The position numbers and the translations under genes are program-made. Under the pieces are notes generated by a model. It saw only the letters and a program-made list of their open reading frames with translations, made no database searches and had not been told where the DNA came from. A DNA stretch of 64,000 bases, from positions 27,052 to 91,051 of the forward strand of contig JBARPC010000004.1 of NCBI GenBank assembly GCA_049642725.1, given 5' to 3'. The DNA comes from Minisyncoccales bacterium (lineage in GTDB: Bacteria > Patescibacteriota > Minisyncoccia > Minisyncoccales > JAGMDC01). Numbering within the stretch: the stretch's first letter is position 1; each line of letters starts with the position of its first letter. Positions 7,672 to 61,669 of this stretch are shown in pieces.

Positions 7672-8190
7672 TTAGCTACTTAAAAAAAGATCTTTAAGTT
7701 TTTGCCACAAGCCCTTATTAGCTTCAGGAATTTCTTGTTTTAATTCTTGTTTTTCTTTTTCAAATTCTTGTTCAATAACAGGTTTTTTTTCAATGATTTT
7801 TTCATTTATGAAACTCTTGATCCAATTCAGTATATTTTGGATCCAGGGCTTGATAGTGTCATACCAGATGTCTGAAAGCCAATTTATTGCTTCATTCCAC
7901 CAGGATTTGATTGTTGGCAAAATATTCTTAAACCAAGGCAAAACTGAAGATTTCCACCAATTAGATGCTTTTTGCCCCATTTTTTGCCAAAAAGGCAGAA
8001 CCTTATTTTGCCAGATGTTTTTCATAGCATTGGGCAGGGGTTTAATCAAACTAATTATAAAATCCTTTGCTTCTGTAAAAGTACTCGGAGCTTCAACTGT
8101 TGTTTGAGCAAAACAAAAATTAGGCAAAATTAAACCGACTATTGACAGAATTATTAAAATTTTGTATAATGATTTATATCTAAAAAGCAT
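7672..8190 (-). CDS. Secreted Trp-rich protein (hypothetical)
   Basis: N-terminal signal peptide MLFRYKSLYKILIILSIVGLILPNFCFA. Many W residues in a repeating PW/WW context. Confidence 0.5.
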   Translation of the reverse strand: MLFRYKSLYKILIILSIVGLILPNFCFAQTTVEAPSTFTEAKDFIISLIKPLPNAMKNIWQNKVLPFWQKMGQKASNWWKSSVLPWFKNILPTIKSWWNEAINWLSDIWYDTIKPWIQNILNWIKSFINEKIIEKKPVIEQEFEKEKQELKQEIPEANKGLWQKLKDLFLSS

Positions 8191-8218
8191 AAATGTTTTT
8201 TAGGAGGTGTGGAAAAAA

Positions 8219-8503
8219 ATGGAAACACAGGAGAGGTATGGTATGAGCGAAATAGAAGTAATGCAGATAAGAGACCTTTTCCGACATATGAGAATATCAA
8301 GGAACCCAGCATGCGGAGAGATTGTATCAAAGATGGAAACATTTGTCTTACAGAGAGATGTCGGAATTCCTCAGGGAATGAGCGATGAGGGAATTATGGA
8401 AATGTTAATACATATCTCGGATTGCCCCGACTGCTCTGTGGAGCGAGATAGAACTTACAAACTGCTGCCGTCGAATGTTTCGGTTTTAAAACCGAAATTT
8501 TAA
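8219..8503 (+). CDS. Small Cys-containing protein with an H-x3-C-x2-C motif (zf-HC2 anti-sigma-like?), GC-shifted
   Basis: Extended -10 TGTATAAT (8163-8170), strong SD AGGAGGTG (8202-8209) 9 nt before the ATG at 8219, terminator hairpin downstream. HISDCPDC motif. About 42% GC against about 30% in the neighbours. Confidence 0.5.
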   Translation: METQERYGMSEIEVMQIRDLFRHMRISRNPACGEIVSKMETFVLQRDVGIPQGMSDEGIMEMLIHISDCPDCSVERDRTYKLLPSNVSVLKPKF

Positions 8504-8520
8504 AAAACAGATAAGGTTTA

Positions 8521-8552
8521 GAGGACACCTTTTTTAAGTCCTCTCTTTTTTT
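8521..8552 (+). terminator. Rho-independent terminator hairpin (GAGGAC-loop-GTCCTC followed by a T-run)
   Basis: Seen in sequence directly downstream of the 8219-8503 gene. Confidence 0.6.
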
Positions 8553-8567
8553 TATTCTTAAACTTTA

Positions 8568-8600
8568 GGAGAACAGTTCTCCTTAGGAGAACTGTTCTCT
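8568..8600. repeat. REP-like double palindrome (GGAGAACAGTTCTCC-tta-GGAGAACTGTTCTC) overlapping the gltX stop
   Basis: Two tandem 14-15 nt perfect palindromes with core GAGAACWGTTCTC. The second copy encodes the last gltX residues (REQFS) and the stop. Confidence 0.7.
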
Positions 8601-10124
8601 GGCTCCCCTTACTCTCTTTAATGTCTTCTCTTTCCCTAAAATTTCTGCGACTTCAAATGGCGGCGCAGACGCCTTTTTCCCTGTCAATGCAACCCTCAAT
8701 GGCCATAAGAGTTCTCCCCTATCCCCTGTTCTTTCAGCTTCAATCATTAGAATCTTTTCTAAGTTTTCTTTATTAAAATCTTTCTCTTCTATTTTTGACA
8801 ATATTTCTTCTAATTTGTCAAGGATTTCAAGAACCTGCTTATAATTCATATCTTTCCACTTCAACAAATTTTTATCATATTCTAATTTGTCTTTGAAAAA
8901 GAAATCAGTCAATTCAGCAATTTCTGATAAATATCTTAACCGCTCCTGATATGCCTTAACAACTTTTTTTAAATAATCGCAGCTAATAACTTCGTCTGTT
9001 TCTTTGATTTTAAACTCTGGTTTTTTTTCTTTGAATAATTCAAATTTTTGAGAACTGTTCTCCTTGGGAGAACAGTTCTCTATAGTTGCTGTCACTTGTT
9101 CTATTAAATTAGCTTTTATTAAATATGGAATACACAATTCCGTTATTTTTTTATCTGATTTCTGGCGGATATAAAAGCCGTTTAAATAATCAAGCCGTTT
9201 GACGTTGAAAACAGCACCTCCTTTTTGAATATTGTCTAAGGAAAATTCTTTAATTAAAGAGACAATATTATATATTTCTCTTTCTGTGCCTGGATTCCAG
9301 CCCAAAAAAGCCATAAAATTAATTAAGGTTTCTAGTAAGACACCTTTTTCTCTGTATTCGGAAATAGCGGTTGCTCCATGCCTTTTGCTTAATTTGCTCC
9401 TGTCCGGGCCTAAAATTAAAGGCAAATGAGCGTATTTTGGCTGGGAAAAGCCTAAGGCCTGCTGAATAAGAATTTGTTTTGGGGTATTGGAAATATGATC
9501 TTCTCCTCTAATGACATGGGAAATTTTCATTTCAAAATCATCTACAGCAGCAGCAAAATTATAAAAAGGTTTTTTAAGACCTTTACTAATAATGAAATCA
9601 CCTATTAAGCTTGAGTCAAATTCAATTTTTTCCCTGACTAAATCCTCAAAAACTATTTTTTTTACTGATTCTGGAATTTTAAACCTGATAACAAAAGGTT
9701 TTTTTTCTTTTAAATTCTTTTCAACTTCTTTTTTAGAAAGCTTTCTGCACTTGCCTGAATAAAGAAGCGCTTGACCCACAGAAATTTGATATTGTTTTTG
9801 AGCTTCTAACTCTTCCTCTGTGCAAAAACAATAATATACTTTATTTTCATCTAAGAGTTTTCTAATATATTTTTCATAAATATCTAATCTTTCACTTTGT
9901 TTATAAAATTCATCGCATTTTAATCCAAGCCATTCCAAGCTTTCCATAATGTTTTTTTCATATTCAGGCCTTGATCTTTCTGAATCAGTATCTTCAATTC
10001 TTAAAATAAACTGGCCCTGATTTTGTTTGGCAAAAATATAGTTAAAAAGAGCTGCTCTGGCAGTACCAATATGTAAAAAGCCCGTAGGAGATGGAGCAAT
10101 TCTTGTTCTAACTTTTTCAATCAT
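8583..10124 (-). CDS. gltX: Glutamyl-tRNA synthetase
   Basis: RIAPSPTGFLHIGTARAALFNY (HIGH region) and KLSKR (KMSKS-like). 513 aa, including in-frame palindromic inserts. Confidence 0.9.
   Translation of the reverse strand: MIEKVRTRIAPSPTGFLHIGTARAALFNYIFAKQNQGQFILRIEDTDSERSRPEYEKNIMESLEWLGLKCDEFYKQSERLDIYEKYIRKLLDENKVYYCFCTEEELEAQKQYQISVGQALLYSGKCRKLSKKEVEKNLKEKKPFVIRFKIPESVKKIVFEDLVREKIEFDSSLIGDFIISKGLKKPFYNFAAAVDDFEMKISHVIRGEDHISNTPKQILIQQALGFSQPKYAHLPLILGPDRSKLSKRHGATAISEYREKGVLLETLINFMAFLGWNPGTEREIYNIVSLIKEFSLDNIQKGGAVFNVKRLDYLNGFYIRQKSDKKITELCIPYLIKANLIEQVTATIENCSPKENSSQKFELFKEKKPEFKIKETDEVISCDYLKKVVKAYQERLRYLSEIAELTDFFFKDKLEYDKNLLKWKDMNYKQVLEILDKLEEILSKIEEKDFNKENLEKILMIEAERTGDRGELLWPLRVALTGKKASAPPFEVAEILGKEKTLKRVRGAREQFS
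9050..9081. repeat. REP-like double palindrome (GAGAACTGTTCTCC-ttg-GGAGAACAGTTCTCT) inserted in-frame inside gltX
   Basis: Same composite element as at 8568-8600. It encodes ENCSPKENSSQ within GluRS. Confidence 0.7.
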
Positions 10125-14038: not shown

Positions 14039-15511
14039 CTATTTAAGATATAACTTTCTTAAAGCTTTGTCAAAATTTTTAGGCAGATTATTCTGCTTAT
14101 TCCAGGAATTTAATATTCTTTTTGATTCTATTTCAATATTTAAATACCTTGGTAATATTCTCTTCTCAAAATAATTTAAGAGAACTGGAAGTTTGAATTT
14201 TTGTGCATATGCATTTTTTTTCAAATTTTTGTTTTCTTTAAATTTTAGATAGCTTAGATAAAAAGCGATTAAACTTTCTTTTTTTGTGCCTACGCATTCA
14301 AACGGTTTTGTTTTACTCTTTCCTATCAACTCCTTCATTATCGGCAGTAATTCTTTTTTTTCAAAAAGATTCTGGCTAAAGATTTTCATTAATTTTTTTT
14401 CTTCAATAAATGGATATAAAATTGTGAAAACAAACAAGCATTTTGAGCATTTCCCGCACCATTTGCCAGTTGATTTTTTGGTTCCAGAAGCAGTTTTATA
14501 GGCCTCATTACAGCTAAGGAAAACCGGGAAATATTTTGGTAATTTAGAGAATAATCTTGCTATTTGGATTTCATACAAAGGCCTTAGAAAACTAAAATAG
14601 TTTATATCTTTAACTAAATATTTTTTGACATAATTTCTATATTTGTTTTCAAATTCAGAACTTTTAGACCATTGATGATTGATTGTTTTGCCAAGATATT
14701 TTATATTGCCTTCATCAGCGCTTTTTTCGCAGGACATTGCTATATTGTTATGGCCGAATAAAACTCCGCAAAAAACAGCTAAATTAGAAATTACTGCTGT
14801 AATTGGCGTATGGCCGTTTAAAAATCCTTTTTGGTTTAATTTTAATAAAGCAGGATCTATCTTTCTTTGGGCAATGATTGGATTTTTAATTTTAGCAATC
14901 TTTAAAATTTTGAAATGCTCTTTTGTAGGATTAACAATAAAACAATTTTTTTCAAATTTTTTGAGCAATTCTAAGGTAACAATTGAATCTTTTCCCTCGC
15001 CCATTGGTATCAAAACATTATCTTTAAGTAAACTCACGATCGTGAACTTACTGTTATTTTTATTTATTTTATTTAGACAACATATTTTTAGAAAATCAGG
15101 TCTTGTAAAGTCAATTTTGTTTTCAAAGAAAAATTGTCCCATTCCGTTAAAGATAAAATCTTTCCACCATTTTATTTGCTGTTTATCTAAATAGCCGGCT
15201 TTTATTTCAATTATTGGGGAGCAAGCCGCTTTCCAATAACTTGGTATTTCCATTAAACCAATGTGAAAAACAAGGCTATTTAATGCACTCCCACCTACTT
15301 TATCCAAGTTTTTTTTATTAACATTTTTTATAATTATTTCCGGTTTAAAACAAATACTACGAGAACTGTTCTCGTAGTGAGAGATTTTAAAATCAAAAGA
15401 AATTTTCAAATCATTTCCAGATATTCCATAAGAATATCCCTGATAAATAAATTTCGGATATTTTTTTCTTAAAACCTCAACATTTTTCATATTATTTTTA
15501 TTATTACTCAA
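14039..15511 (-). CDS. Hypothetical protein with a PP-loop-like GEGKDS motif and a C-terminal CxxC pair; possible ATP-pyrophosphatase/amidotransferase-like enzyme
   Basis: MGEGKDSIVTLELL resembles the SGGxDS PP-loop. CGKCSKC motif. Embedded in the mur cluster. Carries an in-frame REP insert (YENSSRS). Confidence 0.4.
   Translation of the reverse strand: MSNNKNNMKNVEVLRKKYPKFIYQGYSYGISGNDLKISFDFKISHYENSSRSICFKPEIIIKNVNKKNLDKVGGSALNSLVFHIGLMEIPSYWKAACSPIIEIKAGYLDKQQIKWWKDFIFNGMGQFFFENKIDFTRPDFLKICCLNKINKNNSKFTIVSLLKDNVLIPMGEGKDSIVTLELLKKFEKNCFIVNPTKEHFKILKIAKIKNPIIAQRKIDPALLKLNQKGFLNGHTPITAVISNLAVFCGVLFGHNNIAMSCEKSADEGNIKYLGKTINHQWSKSSEFENKYRNYVKKYLVKDINYFSFLRPLYEIQIARLFSKLPKYFPVFLSCNEAYKTASGTKKSTGKWCGKCSKCLFVFTILYPFIEEKKLMKIFSQNLFEKKELLPIMKELIGKSKTKPFECVGTKKESLIAFYLSYLKFKENKNLKKNAYAQKFKLPVLLNYFEKRILPRYLNIEIESKRILNSWNKQNNLPKNFDKALRKLYLK
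15356..15378. repeat. REP palindrome ACTACGAGAACTGTTCTCGTAGT inserted in-frame in the 14039-15511 CDS
   Basis: Perfect 11-bp arms around a central T. Same element as the copies flanking the RAYT gene. Confidence 0.7.
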
Positions 15512-58856: not shown

Positions 58857-58963
58857 ATCTTGATTCTATCATAATTTAACTAAAAATAAAGACCTATTTT
58901 CAATTTTTGGCTCACCCCGTAAAGCTTCGCCACGGGGCACGAATTTTTCCCGCATATTATACT

Positions 58964-58986
58964 ACTACGAGAACAGTTCTCGTAGT
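58964..58986. repeat. REP palindrome ACTACGAGAACAGTTCTCGTAGT (GTAG-type), 3' flank of the RAYT gene
   Basis: Perfect 11-bp arms. Preceded by a CCCCGT...ACGGGG hairpin plus T-run at 58906-58950. Confidence 0.75.
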
Positions 58987-58988
58987 GT

Positions 58989-59699
58989 TTAGTTTATTAA
59001 TATTTCTTTGAAATTAGAATCAGCCATTTGTTTTTTAAGCGAAATCCATTCTTTAACAAAATGACGGCTGTTATCTATACTGCCCATTAAGTTAGATAAT
59101 AACTCTCTGTTTGTTAATAAAGGATAATTCTTCTTGCCCAAATAATCAGGATAGCTTGACCATTTATAGTTTTCTAAAAATTTAATAACATCTTCTATAT
59201 TTTTGGTTTTTATCCCCTCTTCTTTCCATTTAGGAGCTATAATAGCTACAGGATTGGTATGAATGTAAACAAATAATGTTTTTAATTGCTCATCGTTTTT
59301 TACAATAACTGCCCTGAATCTCCCGTCAAAAACATGGCCCTTTCTTTCGTATTTCTTATTATAATACATTCCATATCCAGCTCCAATCTTTCTCATAAAC
59401 TTACTAATCCCTTGGCCTCTAACTTGTTTAATTAATAGATGAACATGATTTGGCATTAAACAAAAAGTCAAAATTTCCACCAACATTTTTCTTTCCTTCT
59501 TTATTCTACCACTACGAGAACTGTTCTCGTAGTGTTGACGATAAGACCAAATAGTGGGATTTTTGTCGTTAAATTCAAATAAATTATGAAGAGAACGAAA
59601 ATAATCCCTTTCGTCTCTAAAAAGCTTCATTCCTTCCACTGCCCTAATTACAATATGGTATATTTCTCCGTTTACTAATGGTGGTCTTTTAATTGGCAT
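58989..59699 (-). mobile_element. REP-associated tyrosine transposase (RAYT; IS200/IS605-family Y1 HuH transposase TnpA)
   Basis: HuH motif CLMPNHVHLLIKQ and catalytic Tyr motif YIHTNPV. Flanked on both sides by the 23-nt REP palindrome. Confidence 0.8.
59511..59533. repeat. REP palindrome ACTACGAGAACTGTTCTCGTAGT lying in-frame inside the RAYT CDS (encodes YENSSRS)
   Basis: Identical to the flanking REPs. Located in the N-terminal third of the transposase gene. Confidence 0.75.
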
Positions 59700-59727
59700 A
59701 TTATATTATATTTTATCTTACTTACGC

Positions 59728-59750
59728 ACTACGAGAACTGTTCTCGTAGT
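59728..59750. repeat. REP palindrome ACTACGAGAACTGTTCTCGTAGT, 5' flank of the RAYT gene
   Basis: Lies between the RAYT start (59699) and the stop of the adjacent CaCA gene (59753). Confidence 0.75.
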
Positions 59751-59752
59751 GT

Positions 59753-60706
59753 TTATTTGACGAGGATTTCGGTTATTACAAAAGCGATGTAAACGCCTAA
59801 AAGGAATAATCCTTCTTTTTTTGTGATTTTTCTATCAGTGCGGACAAAAATAAGAAAGAATAAAGCAGCCATTACCAAGAAAAACCGGGCAACAGCATAA
59901 GGAGAAAAACTGGCAATTTCAATCGGACAAATAATAGCCACAATGCCTAAAACCAATGTAGAAGCAACAATAACAACGCCCATTAAATCGCCTAAAAGCA
60001 TCCAATTCTGGCCTTGCCTGGCTGAAAGAATGGTAAAGTATGCTTCTGGAAAAGCGTTGCCAATAGCAACAACAAACATTCCGATAAAAACCAAAGAAAA
60101 ATGAAAGGTCTCTCCAAAATAAAAAGCAGCTTCTACCATTCCTTTAGAAGCTGCGAGTAAAATAATTATTCCAAAAGCTACTTTCCCCAAACCCTTAAAA
60201 AAATCTTTAAAATCCTTTACACTAACTTTATTCCCATTATATGTCTTACTAAACCTTTCTTTTTTTGAAAAGAGCCAAAAAACATAAAACACAAAGGCAG
60301 AAATTAAAACTGCTCCGTCGCCTCTTGATAAGATACCGTCAAAAATTAGAAAAAGAGGCAGAATAGCAATAAAAAAGGTAAAAACTGCTGATGACTGGAC
60401 CATCTTGCTTCTAGCTGGTATTCCCTTGCTTACAAAAACAGACAGAGCAATAATAACCGTTAAATCAATAAGGTTTCCGCCAATAGTATCTCCGAAAGAA
60501 AGCTGAGGAACTCCTTTAAGAGCAGACAGAATGCCAAAGAAAAAATTAGGAGCAGAACCAGCAACAGCAACGATAAAAAAAGCAATAACAAATTCCCTTA
60601 ATTTCAAAAAACAAGCCATTTTTACTAATCCGTCAACCAGCCATTTTCCAGACCAGAAAAGCAAAAAACAAGAAATAAGAAAAAGTAAGATATAAAAATA
60701 AAACAT
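59753..60706 (-). CDS. Ca2+:cation antiporter (CaCA family, YrbG-like)
   Basis: Two alpha-repeat motifs (GDTIGGNLIDL and GNAFPEAYF). About ten TM segments. Confidence 0.8.
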   Translation of the reverse strand: MFYFYILLFLISCFLLFWSGKWLVDGLVKMACFLKLREFVIAFFIVAVAGSAPNFFFGILSALKGVPQLSFGDTIGGNLIDLTVIIALSVFVSKGIPARSKMVQSSAVFTFFIAILPLFLIFDGILSRGDGAVLISAFVFYVFWLFSKKERFSKTYNGNKVSVKDFKDFFKGLGKVAFGIIILLAASKGMVEAAFYFGETFHFSLVFIGMFVVAIGNAFPEAYFTILSARQGQNWMLLGDLMGVVIVASTLVLGIVAIICPIEIASFSPYAVARFFLVMAALFFLIFVRTDRKITKKEGLFLLGVYIAFVITEILVK

Positions 60707-60709
60707 AGA

Positions 60710-61669
60710 TTATTGAATTAATAATTCACAAAAGACAAAAGTAATATAAATGCCTAATAAAAATATAGCTTCTTTTTTTGTAATTTTACTACCACTCCGA
60801 ACACAGAAGAAAAAGAACAAAGCTGAAAAAATTAAGAAAAACCGGGCAATAGCAAAAGAAGAAAAATTAATCATTTCAATCGGACAAATCAAAGCAACAA
60901 TTCCTAAGACCAAAGTAGCCGGCACTATTACTGAACCCATTAAATTGCCTAAAATCATTCCTGTCTCACCCTTTTTAGCAGAAATAATAGCAAAATACAT
61001 TTCAGGCAAGGCATTTCCCAGACCTACGATTAAAATACCGATTAAAGGTAAAGACAAATTCCAGTTCTGAGCGAAAAAAGAAGCTGACCTCACTATTCCT
61101 TCTGCTGCTGCCAAAAGTAAAATCAGGGATAAGGATACTGCAACTAAACTCTTTATAAAAAGTTTAAATCCTATAATTGTATCTTTTTCTTTTTCATTAT
61201 AAACTCTTTTAAATCTTTCTTTTTTTGAAAAGAGCCAAAAAACATAAAATACAAAGGCAGAAATTAATAAAATCCCGTCTCCTCTGCCTAATGTCCCGTC
61301 TAAAATTAAAACTATTGGCAAAACCGCTATAGCAATTGTAAAAATTGAAGAAGTTTGAATAAGCTCGCCTTTTGCTGGAATAAATGCTTTTGAAATTAAG
61401 ACCGCCAAAGCCACTGCTAAAGTTAAATCAATAACATTGCCCCCTACTACATCTCCAAAAGAAAGCTCGGGAATTTTGTAAAGAGCTGAATTAATTCCAA
61501 CAAAAAGATTTGGCACAGAGCCGGCAAAAGCCATCACAAAAAAGGCAACCACAAATTCCTTCCATTTTAAAAACCTTGCCATTCTAATTAATCCTTCAAC
61601 CAGTATCTTTCCTGACCAAAGAAGAATTATGCAGGAAAATATAAAAATAAAAGTATAAAAACCAATCAT
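60710..61669 (-). CDS. Ca2+:cation antiporter (CaCA family), tandem paralog
   Basis: GDVVGGNVIDL and GNALPEMYF alpha-repeats. Clear paralog of the adjacent gene. Confidence 0.8.
   Translation of the reverse strand: MIGFYTFIFIFSCIILLWSGKILVEGLIRMARFLKWKEFVVAFFVMAFAGSVPNLFVGINSALYKIPELSFGDVVGGNVIDLTLAVALAVLISKAFIPAKGELIQTSSIFTIAIAVLPIVLILDGTLGRGDGILLISAFVFYVFWLFSKKERFKRVYNEKEKDTIIGFKLFIKSLVAVSLSLILLLAAAEGIVRSASFFAQNWNLSLPLIGILIVGLGNALPEMYFAIISAKKGETGMILGNLMGSVIVPATLVLGIVALICPIEMINFSSFAIARFFLIFSALFFFFCVRSGSKITKKEAIFLLGIYITFVFCELLIQ

Follow-up and report, generated by a model that had tools for sequence, protein, structure and literature searches.

How do perfect palindromes come to lie inside the gene of an essential enzyme, and what have they done to its product? 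The question is raised by gltX, the gene for glutamyl-tRNA synthetase (GluRS), in a stretch of 64,000 nucleotides (hereafter the window) of contig JBARPC010000004.1 from a Minisyncoccales bacterium of the Candidate Phyla Radiation (CPR). An earlier note on this DNA described two copies of a composite palindrome within gltX and likened them both to repetitive extragenic palindromes (REPs), in particular those flanking a gene for a REP-associated tyrosine transposase (RAYT) in the same window, and to the Rickettsia palindromic elements (RPEs). The gene itself (8583..10124, minus strand, 513 aa, glutamate--tRNA ligase) is the sole long open reading frame (ORF) spanning both elements, and its product is a bacterial GluRS by profile matches (Pfam tRNA-synt_1c at E=3.6e-102 together with Anticodon_2, and TIGR00464 at 522 bits) that is 100% identical to a protein of a Minisyncoccales (Parcubacteria, CPR) metagenome-assembled genome (MAG). 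The answer that we consider probable is that the elements belong to a REP-like family, arranged in doublets like those called REPINs, that is tied to a vertically inherited RAYT and is tolerated in coding DNA.

Each gltX element is a doublet of two inverted palindromic units separated by a 3-nt spacer, as the earlier note had it, and checking of the coordinates gives both a length of 33 nt. The 3' doublet (8568..8600, minus strand) reads AGAGAACAGTTCTCC-TAA-GGAGAACTGTTCTCC in gene orientation, corresponding to GGAGAACAGTTCTCC-TTA-GGAGAACTGTTCTCT on the plus strand, and the internal doublet (9049..9081, minus strand) reads AGAGAACTGTTCTCC-CAA-GGAGAACAGTTCTCA, or TGAGAACTGTTCTCC-TTG-GGAGAACAGTTCTCT on the plus strand; both fit the pattern AGAGAAC-W-GTTCTCC / YAA / GGAGAAC-W-GTTCTC. 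Translation agrees with what had been claimed for the two copies. The internal one is in frame, with codons GAG AAC TGT TCT CCC AAG GAG AAC AGT TCT CAA that encode (I)ENCSPKENSSQ at aa 349-359, and the 3' one supplies the end of the protein through the codons AGA GAA CAG TTC TCC TAA, read as REQFS and stop. The stop codon (8583-8585) is itself the 3-nt spacer of the 3' doublet, leaving the second unit untranslated, and a second in-frame TAA follows that unit. The GluRS peptides predicted from the doublets are ENCSPKENSSQK, located within ...TATIENCSPKENSSQK..., and the C-terminal ...GAREQFS.

Both doublets are 14-bp inverted repeats around a 3-nt loop, and their arms are exact reverse complements with the central W included. 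This central base covaries between the arms, being A..T in the 3' copy and T..A in the internal copy, indicating that the two gltX doublets are not simple duplicates of each other. RNA folding gives the 3' doublet a hairpin of 14 bp and a 3-nt loop at -24.5 kcal/mol (z = -4.3) and the internal doublet a hairpin at -23.6 kcal/mol (z = -7.4). Because the 33-nt unit equals 11 codons, the 18-nt period equals 6 codons and the core is free of stops in all six frames, the element can sit in coding DNA without breaking the frame. Several other identities were considered and set aside. Rfam matches over the element all fell far below the gathering score (mir-9457, for example, reached 28 bits against 90), and a known RNA family was rejected. 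An intrinsic terminator of gltX was also rejected, as the gltX strand has no T-run, the doublet being followed by TAAAGTTTAAGAATAAAAAAAA, and a terminator scan was empty there. A resemblance to LexA/Cheo-box, parS or dif sites was dropped on account of unfitting spacing and sequence.

What joins the gltX doublets to the rest of the window is a 13-nt core, GAGAACWGTTCTC, that has 8 exact matches in the 64 kb against 0.06 expected and 0 of 100 shuffles. A relaxed search, allowing 2 mismatches and any central base, revealed no further copy in the window, every copy being perfect, and chance or a low-complexity artefact was rejected on these grounds. The cores lie at 5 loci, four of them in the gltX doublets and four in GTAG-tagged REPs, which are palindromes of 23-25 nt of the form (C/T)ACTACGAGAACWGTTCTCGTAGTG with the CTAC/GTAG tag typical of REPs. 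Two of these REPs flank the RAYT gene, on its 3' side (TACTACGAGAACAGTTCTCGTAGTG, 58963..58987) and on its 5' side (CACTACGAGAACTGTTCTCGTAGTG, 59727..59751), consistent with the earlier observation of a shared core. A third lies within the RAYT ORF (59510..59534, minus strand) and the fourth within a MurL-like ORF (14039-15511) at 15355..15379 (minus strand), both read as HYENSSRS. A recent insertion was rejected for the MurL REP, as the orthologue in the relative L001 has a variant palindrome of the same length; an empty MurL site, 7 aa shorter, is found only in the more distant L014.

Through the shared core the gltX elements are in the same family as the RAYT REPs. As short palindromes (20-40 bp) at dispersed loci they answer to the description of REPs, and as two inverted REPs within one long hairpin the gltX doublets have the layout of a REPIN, albeit with an atypical spacer of 3 nt. 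They do not carry the REP tag, since the gltX units close as (A/G)GAGAAC...GTTCTCC, with neither GTAG nor CGTC, nor is the family extragenic here, 5 of the 8 window cores being translated and one more lying directly after a stop.

The gene between the flanking REPs (58989..59699, minus strand) encodes a RAYT-like Y1 (HUH) transposase of 236 aa (Pfam Y1_Tnp, E=1.8e-11), with the HUH motif NHVHLL at 59433-59450 and the tyrosine motif YIHTNP at 59250-59267. Its best NCBIfam match, NF047646 REP_Tyr_transpos, scores 46.2 bits, under the curated cut-off of 80. The arrangement of a Y1 gene with both motifs and flanking REPs, which defines a REP-RAYT locus, recurs in five other CPR sequences (L064, L065, L008, L043 and L036), and a core lies within ~160 nt of the ORF in all six of the full-length RAYT genes compared. 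There are 2244 RAYT relatives at E<1e-10; the best 120 are all ~235 aa, and every source-named protein among those 120 belongs to Parcubacteria, Nealsonbacteria, Pacebacteria or Patescibacteria. By sequence, the protein appears to be a member of a divergent CPR clade. In the window, L064 and L065 the RAYT gene adjoins a gene for a Na/Ca-exchanger (Na_Ca_ex), a shared neighbor that points to vertical, single-copy inheritance. At orthologous RAYT-flanking sites the stems differ in sequence yet stay complementary. This single-copy, syntenic RAYT in the same window is most likely the cognate enzyme of the family. The closing pairs of the RAYT-associated REPs are genome specific, with ACGAG...CTCGT in the window, CCGAG...CTCGG in L064 and TCAACGAG...CTCGTTGA in L065.

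Is the core confined to this lineage? We scanned 185,579 species-representative genomes, with neither the source genome nor that of L001 among the matches, for two cores separated by 1 to 30 nt (core-N{1,30}-core), and found 54 loci, nearly all of them in Nealsonbacteria, Parcubacteria, Paceibacterota and MAGs labeled "Saccharibacteria". A metagenome scan for the 5-nt-spaced doublet added only one further locus type, a Mur ligase; it failed to recover the relative L003, which makes that collection incomplete for such a purpose. An inverted pair around a palindromic spacer is the usual layout of a doublet. No fewer than 18 doublets lie deep in Pfam-confirmed genes whose domain continues in one frame on both sides, the hosts being enolase (four times, three at one site and one elsewhere), TopA, TsaD, KsgA, TIM, Pth, a MiaB-like radical-SAM protein, FemAB, prepilin peptidase (twice), FAD oxidoreductase (twice), a metallo-beta-lactamase, a Mur ligase and a RAYT; two more lie in MurL-like ORFs that Pfam does not recognize. 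All three frames are used, giving ENSS/ENCS, RTVL and (R/G)E(Q/L)FS. Within one genome, CAZDKD01, the same doublet with its own flanks occurs at unrelated loci (L009 and L019).

Approximately 100 distinct instances of the core were collected from other CPR genomes. The core is constant, any nucleotide being possible at its central base, whereas the stem extensions are lineage specific yet complementary, and many CPR variants have no GTAG/CGTC tag. At the four positions outside the core, complementarity among 101 distinct instances is 82, 67, 59 and 64%, compared with 30-39% in shuffles (maximum 53%), and the pair types G-C, C-G, A-T and T-A all occur at the stem extension. The stem extensions therefore covary, and the hairpin is the conserved entity. 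This bears on the proposal that the core is a genome-signature motif read as double-stranded DNA, such as an uptake signal of the USS/DUS type or a parS-like site for partition or organisation, motifs that are also found within genes, in several frames and as inverted pairs. An invariant 13-nt core with variable flanks across several CPR classes, present in coding DNA in all frames, would suit such a motif. CPR bacteria commonly encode competence machinery, and the metallo-beta-lactamase ORF with a doublet, judged by eye, resembles the C-terminal domain of ComEC. However, USS/DUS motifs reach a density of ~1 per kb, far above the ~1 per 8 kb of the core here, the covarying stem extensions point to a single-strand hairpin and not to a duplex site, and the core flanks the RAYT gene in 6 of 6 cases. 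We consider a signature motif very improbable.

Some doublets outside the window have features of their own. In the Nealsonbacteria MAG VGKE01 (L011, L016, L018, L020, L024, L032, L033 and L046) the doublet centers a repeat of at least 130 nt; 10 copies can be compared with 45-nt flanks, of which 9 share the whole stretch, and more copies lie at contig ends. The ksgA copy (L025:1230) shares only the inner ~68 nt, its right flank GGTAGTTGCTAA encoding VVAN of KsgA, which we take to be a conserved motif of that protein. It may be that host flanks were mobilized together with the doublet, or that ksgA holds the source copy. The enolase doublets at L015:711, L031:6580 and L044:4421 share one position, as do those of the FAD oxidoreductase at L013:535 and L019:5892, each with genome-specific stem variants. 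The enolase doublet stands just before the conserved (V/I)GDDL strand and adds ~5 residues net, indicating that native sequence was replaced as well.

How the doublets arrived in gltX was addressed by comparing the window with the DNA of six relatives (L001 and L003-L007). At the 3' site the number of units varies from none in L003 and L004, to one in L001, to two in the window, L006 and L007, in each case at one and the same codon. L003 ends GAA GCA AAA GAA TTG ATT GGT TTA AAA TAA, with L004 similar, so that element-free relatives have the C-termini ...EAKELIGLK* or EAKKLIK*. L001 reads GAA GCC [AGA GAA CTG TTC TCC] AAA AAT TAA TTT ATT GGT TTA AAA TAA, the single unit being bracketed, and L006 and L007 carry the full 33-nt doublet and read through it as RELFS(S/Q)GEQFS. 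The window has the doublet with TAA in its loop followed by AGTTTAAGAATAA. Past the new stop, the old terminal codons and stop, GGTTTAAAATAA, are recognizable in both the window and L001. In the window this relic, TAA-AGTTTAAGAATAA (8552..8567, minus strand), is now 3' untranslated region (UTR) and matches the GGT TTA AAA TAA of element-free orthologues in the 3'-end alignment of the window, L001, L003 and L004; in L001 the 3' UTR has a 20-nt exact match, ATTGGTTTAAAATAAAAAAA, to the last codons of L003. Because the old last codons and stop remain visible beyond the new stop, the 3' copy is established as an insertion with a swapped tail, and the alignment places it directly after an Ala codon, ~8 residues before the native C-terminus. 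The remodeled C-terminus proposed in the earlier note thus holds in that the native tail has been replaced, with the change being a small one of ~8 non-conserved residues for 5.

The internal site has a different history. The doublet is present there in the window, L001 (85% aa identity) and L003 (83%), varying only in the loop or closing pair (CCC AAG, CCT AAG and CCT AAA), and in a neighbor-joining (NJ) tree of GluRS it marks one clade. L004, L005 and L006 have DCPDG(V/H)NCPET(V/L) in its place, encoded by DCPDGVNCPETV, for a net difference of just 3 codons. The gene is a recombination mosaic, with L003 and L004 96% identical at nt 75-375, whereas at nt 975-1200 the identity of L003 is 92-93% with L001, 87-91% with the window and 65-68% with L004; the window gltX alternates between L001-like and L004-like segments. 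Given this mosaic around the element, the internal doublet belongs to an exchangeable cassette of the hypervariable linker, and a clean 11-codon insertion was rejected. Of the two insertions suggested in the earlier note, the 3' one is backed by a relic of the old terminus, and the internal one is not a clean insertion. Orthologues having the residues but not the palindromic DNA, the finding that would have told against the note, did not turn up: in the ortholog alignment, 5 of 5 orthologues with element residues have exact palindromic DNA and the others have other residues. Furthermore, L006 and L007 have only 48% third-codon-position identity overall, yet both cores are identical, indicating that conservation is at the nucleotide and not the protein level.

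These alignments also lend some appeal to an origin in place, in which the palindromes arose from native codons such as GAA CTG TTC (E-L-F), themselves palindromic to begin with, by template-switch or quasi-palindrome mutation and the likeness to REPs is convergent. The native C-terminus of many GluRS is (K/R)-E-L-(L/I/F), and AAAGAATTGATT and AGAGAACTGTTC share 8 of 12 positions; the two arms of each doublet, down to the central W, are exact reverse complements of one another, as expected of a single template switch and not of 18-nt slippage; and the MurL and internal gltX sites show replacement instead of clean insertion. But an exact 13-nt core common to the RAYT REPs and to ~100 other CPR instances cannot be convergent, and the same doublet with its own flanks at unrelated loci in CAZDKD01 speaks against a purely local origin, to which we give very little credence. 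The step from one unit to a doublet is a separate matter and may have proceeded by template switching. Direct 18-nt slippage as the source of the second unit was rejected, the central bases being complementary and not identical, and the single unit of L001 can be explained by deletion between the direct GTTCTCC repeats.

What have the doublets done to GluRS? Residues 341-377 (8994..9104, minus strand) form a lineage-specific linker insertion with the internal doublet at its tip; on alignment to solved GluRS structures they have no counterpart, query residues 340 and 378 aligning to the adjacent residues 358 and 359 of Thermotoga maritima 2o5r_A. In an AlphaFold2 model (mean pLDDT 81.9) residues 346-360, containing the element, are coil with pLDDT <50, and REQFS lies at the end of the last helix (residues 498-512). 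The loop location that the earlier note proposed to test for is therefore found for the internal copy, in an unstructured segment absent from solved structures. As modeled, both doublet positions are structurally permissive, and the effect on GluRS is probably small, consisting of a decorated loop and a swapped, non-conserved C-terminal tail.

Two further observations concern how the family changes over time. A REP is present inside the RAYT coding sequence, within the loop that directly precedes the HUH motif, in the window (59510-59534), L064 (10186), L065 (1324) and L043 (2554). It is read as HYENSSRS in frame 1 in the window and as PRTVLG or TRTVLV in frame 2 in L064 and L065, and is thus kept across the CPR RAYT family as DNA and not as protein. 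Among 120 RAYT homologues, 48 have the exact core peptide at this point (19 in frame 1 and 29 in frame 2), 54 a near-core peptide and 18 none. The RAYT-internal REP may serve autoregulation or may be an ancient self-insertion. The second observation is that orthologous sites more than 40 kb apart look concerted. Comparing the window at 15355-15379 with L001:4575-4598, and at 58963-58987 with L064:10727-10753, the sister genome has one and the same three-base variant, CGAGGACAGACCTCG, at both sites where the window has CGAGAACWGTTCTCG.

Could the hairpins instead be selected for what they do? They might be cis-acting elements, a binding site or an RNA structure regulating gltX, that protect the 3' end of gltX mRNA, pause ribosomes at the stop codon or mediate autoregulation, or a domesticated REP-RAYT might maintain functional hairpins. 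Such selection is suggested by the recurrence of the 3' element at an identical codon in three GluRS clades, the perfect cores of L006 and L007 despite their third-position divergence, the lack of degenerate copies in the window, the concerted evolution at orthologous sites, the REP kept in the RAYT ORF in two different frames, and a RAYT that is single-copy and syntenic, as domesticated RAYTs are (PMC5581495). On the other hand, the 3' copy is missing from L003 and both copies from L004 and L005, so the elements are dispensable for gltX; the occurrence of the same doublets at unrelated positions in 15 or more unrelated gene families argues against a gene-specific role; and the gltX strand has no T-run behind the 3' hairpin, which is thus not a canonical intrinsic terminator. 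We judge this explanation unlikely. A bolder version, in which the CPR REP-RAYT is a domesticated system of the whole superphylum whose RAYT keeps GAGAAC-N-GTTCTC hairpins perfect by copy-correction, is raised by the concerted evolution, the same variant standing at two distant orthologous sites of the sister genome, and we regard it as doubtful. If true, the hairpins maintained would include in-frame copies in essential genes and one in the RAYT ORF, and a function at the level of the hairpin would be implied, such as RAYT autoregulation, punctuation of replication or transcription, or control of mRNA 3' ends.

Several points sit uneasily with a RAYT-linked family merely tolerated in coding DNA. 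The gltX units share just the 13-nt core with the RAYT REPs of the window and close with G...C, not CACTAC...GTAGTG, and they are without the GTAG tag that E. coli TnpA-REP requires for activity. Copies are few (the 64 kb of the window have 8 cores, and 21.5 kb of L001 have 3), there are no decayed copies in the window, which is unexpected for neutral junk, and concerted changes at orthologous sites do not fit a purely selfish model. In the NJ tree three distinct clades have the 3' element, each at this one codon, and random transposition accounts for that less well than a selected site, homologous transfer or strict targeting would. In the native sequence the codons AAA GAA TTG already resemble the 5' half of the element, making the insertion junction ambiguous, and the internal copy, for which there is no empty site, amounts to a gain of 3 codons within a hypervariable cassette that recombination has exchanged. 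It is because of the absent GTAG on the gltX units, the same-codon recurrence, the missing decayed copies and the concerted changes that a functional or domesticated role, although not a likely one, is retained beside the REP-like family that we favor.

For that family we propose the following course of events. The gltX elements would be miniature REPIN-like doublets, two inverted REP units with a 3-nt spacer, and members of a CPR-wide REP family in which the hairpin core GAGAAC-N-GTTCTC is invariant. A RAYT may move or copy-correct the units on single-stranded DNA, and selection would need only to purge those copies that harm the fold. One gltX doublet sits at the tip of the disordered, lineage-specific linker loop, and the other went in after the Ala codon, where in the window the TAA of its loop now ends the protein while the old codons decay downstream. 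REPs and bacterial interspersed mosaic elements (BIMEs) at mRNA 3' ends in E. coli protect against exonucleases, and near a stop codon they affect translation. Likewise, the -24 kcal/mol hairpin at the gltX stop codon might influence mRNA 3'-end stability or termination, the elements being otherwise presumably neutral passengers.

How does this compare with systems already described? The closest precedent is provided by the intragenic GTAG/CGTC REPs and REP dimers of Opitutus terrae, Rickettsia conorii (RPE-4 and RPE-6, which are identical with REPs) and Thauera (Di Nocera, De Gregorio & Rocco 2013, PMC3733652). In both cases palindromes of the REP family lie in known genes, often as dimers and some at the end of the ORF, are held to be tolerated in loops or linkers, and flank a tyrosine transposase gene; the gltX units differ in lacking GTAG/CGTC, in forming a doublet of just 33 nt (11 aa) with a 3-nt spacer, in their CPR host and in a core conserved far above the species level. 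With the REPIN-RAYT systems of Pseudomonas and Enterobacteria (Bertels & Rainey 2011, PMC3116915; PMC5581495) the CPR family shares inverted REPs in one long hairpin, covarying stems and a single-copy, vertically inherited, REP-flanked RAYT. Classical REPINs, however, are extragenic, with longer spacers and hundreds of copies, whereas the CPR family has a low copy number, with many copies in frame in genes and one in the RAYT ORF.

The likeness to RPEs drawn in the earlier note stands only in part. Like RPE-1 (~150 bp; PMC10969869), the CPR palindromes lie in frame in unrelated housekeeping genes of a reduced genome and add a peptide at permissive sites, and in-frame insertion into unrelated genes at such sites is what is seen here. 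Nevertheless, RPE-1 is 4-5 times longer, with a conserved peptide in one frame and no known cognate transposase, and has no sequence relation to the 33-nt CPR elements, which are read in three frames and so depart from the size (about 100-150 bp), family and peptide of an RPE (PMC10969869); intragenic REP dimers, and not RPE-1, are the nearer parallel. The REPs and BIMEs of E. coli offer another, in that a stable hairpin lies at or next to a stop codon between convergent genes. In gltX, by contrast, the hairpin carries the stop in its loop and is coding over half its length.

Since intragenic REP dimers have been published (PMC3733652), as have in-frame RPEs (PMC10969869), the novelty of the gltX doublets as such is lowered, and the family is of note chiefly for its breadth across the CPR, together with the RAYT-internal copy and the concerted evolution. 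A full-text literature search found no description of a REP or REPIN-RAYT system in the CPR, to which the present observations extend this biology. Gene-dense and reduced as these genomes are, they have a large share of their doublets in frame in core enzymes (GluRS, enolase, TopA, TsaD, KsgA and others). Some of the lineage-specific insertions that typify CPR proteins can thereby be given a concrete origin, and caution is called for in annotation and in marker-gene alignments for phylogeny. A conserved core, covarying stems and a syntenic RAYT make this a tractable system in which to ask whether RAYTs act on REPs.

Finally, some features lie around the main loci. Near the RAYT gene there are two tandem Na/Ca-exchanger paralogues (60235-60706 and 61195-61669; 71-73% nt identity, ~960-nt spacing), and the pair is also present in L064. 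Downstream of gltX, a small ORF on the plus strand (8207-8503), convergent to gltX and conserved with an 85-aa ORF in L003, is preceded by a perfect consensus sigma-70 promoter, TTGACA-17-TATAAT (12 of 12 positions, 8142-8170, plus strand). Behind the ORF comes a GAGGAC...GTCCTC hairpin with a T-run (8521..8553, plus strand) that is kept in L003-L006, was missed by a simple terminator scan because its loop exceeds 8 nt, and by its sequence looks like the terminator of the small gene. Rfam assigned the unit at 8142-8553 to no family at gathering score. The hairpin marks the outer limit of the convergent spacer in which the 3' doublet lies. Other palindromes follow gltX in the relatives, namely a 38-nt perfect G+C-rich palindrome, AGAGGTCGGGTCTCGGCAGCTGCCGAGACCCGACCTCT, at L006:1670-1710 and a different inverted repeat, GAAACAATAAC..., at L005:2605-2700. 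This gathering of unrelated palindromes suggests that the convergent spacer after gltX is a hot spot for hairpin elements.

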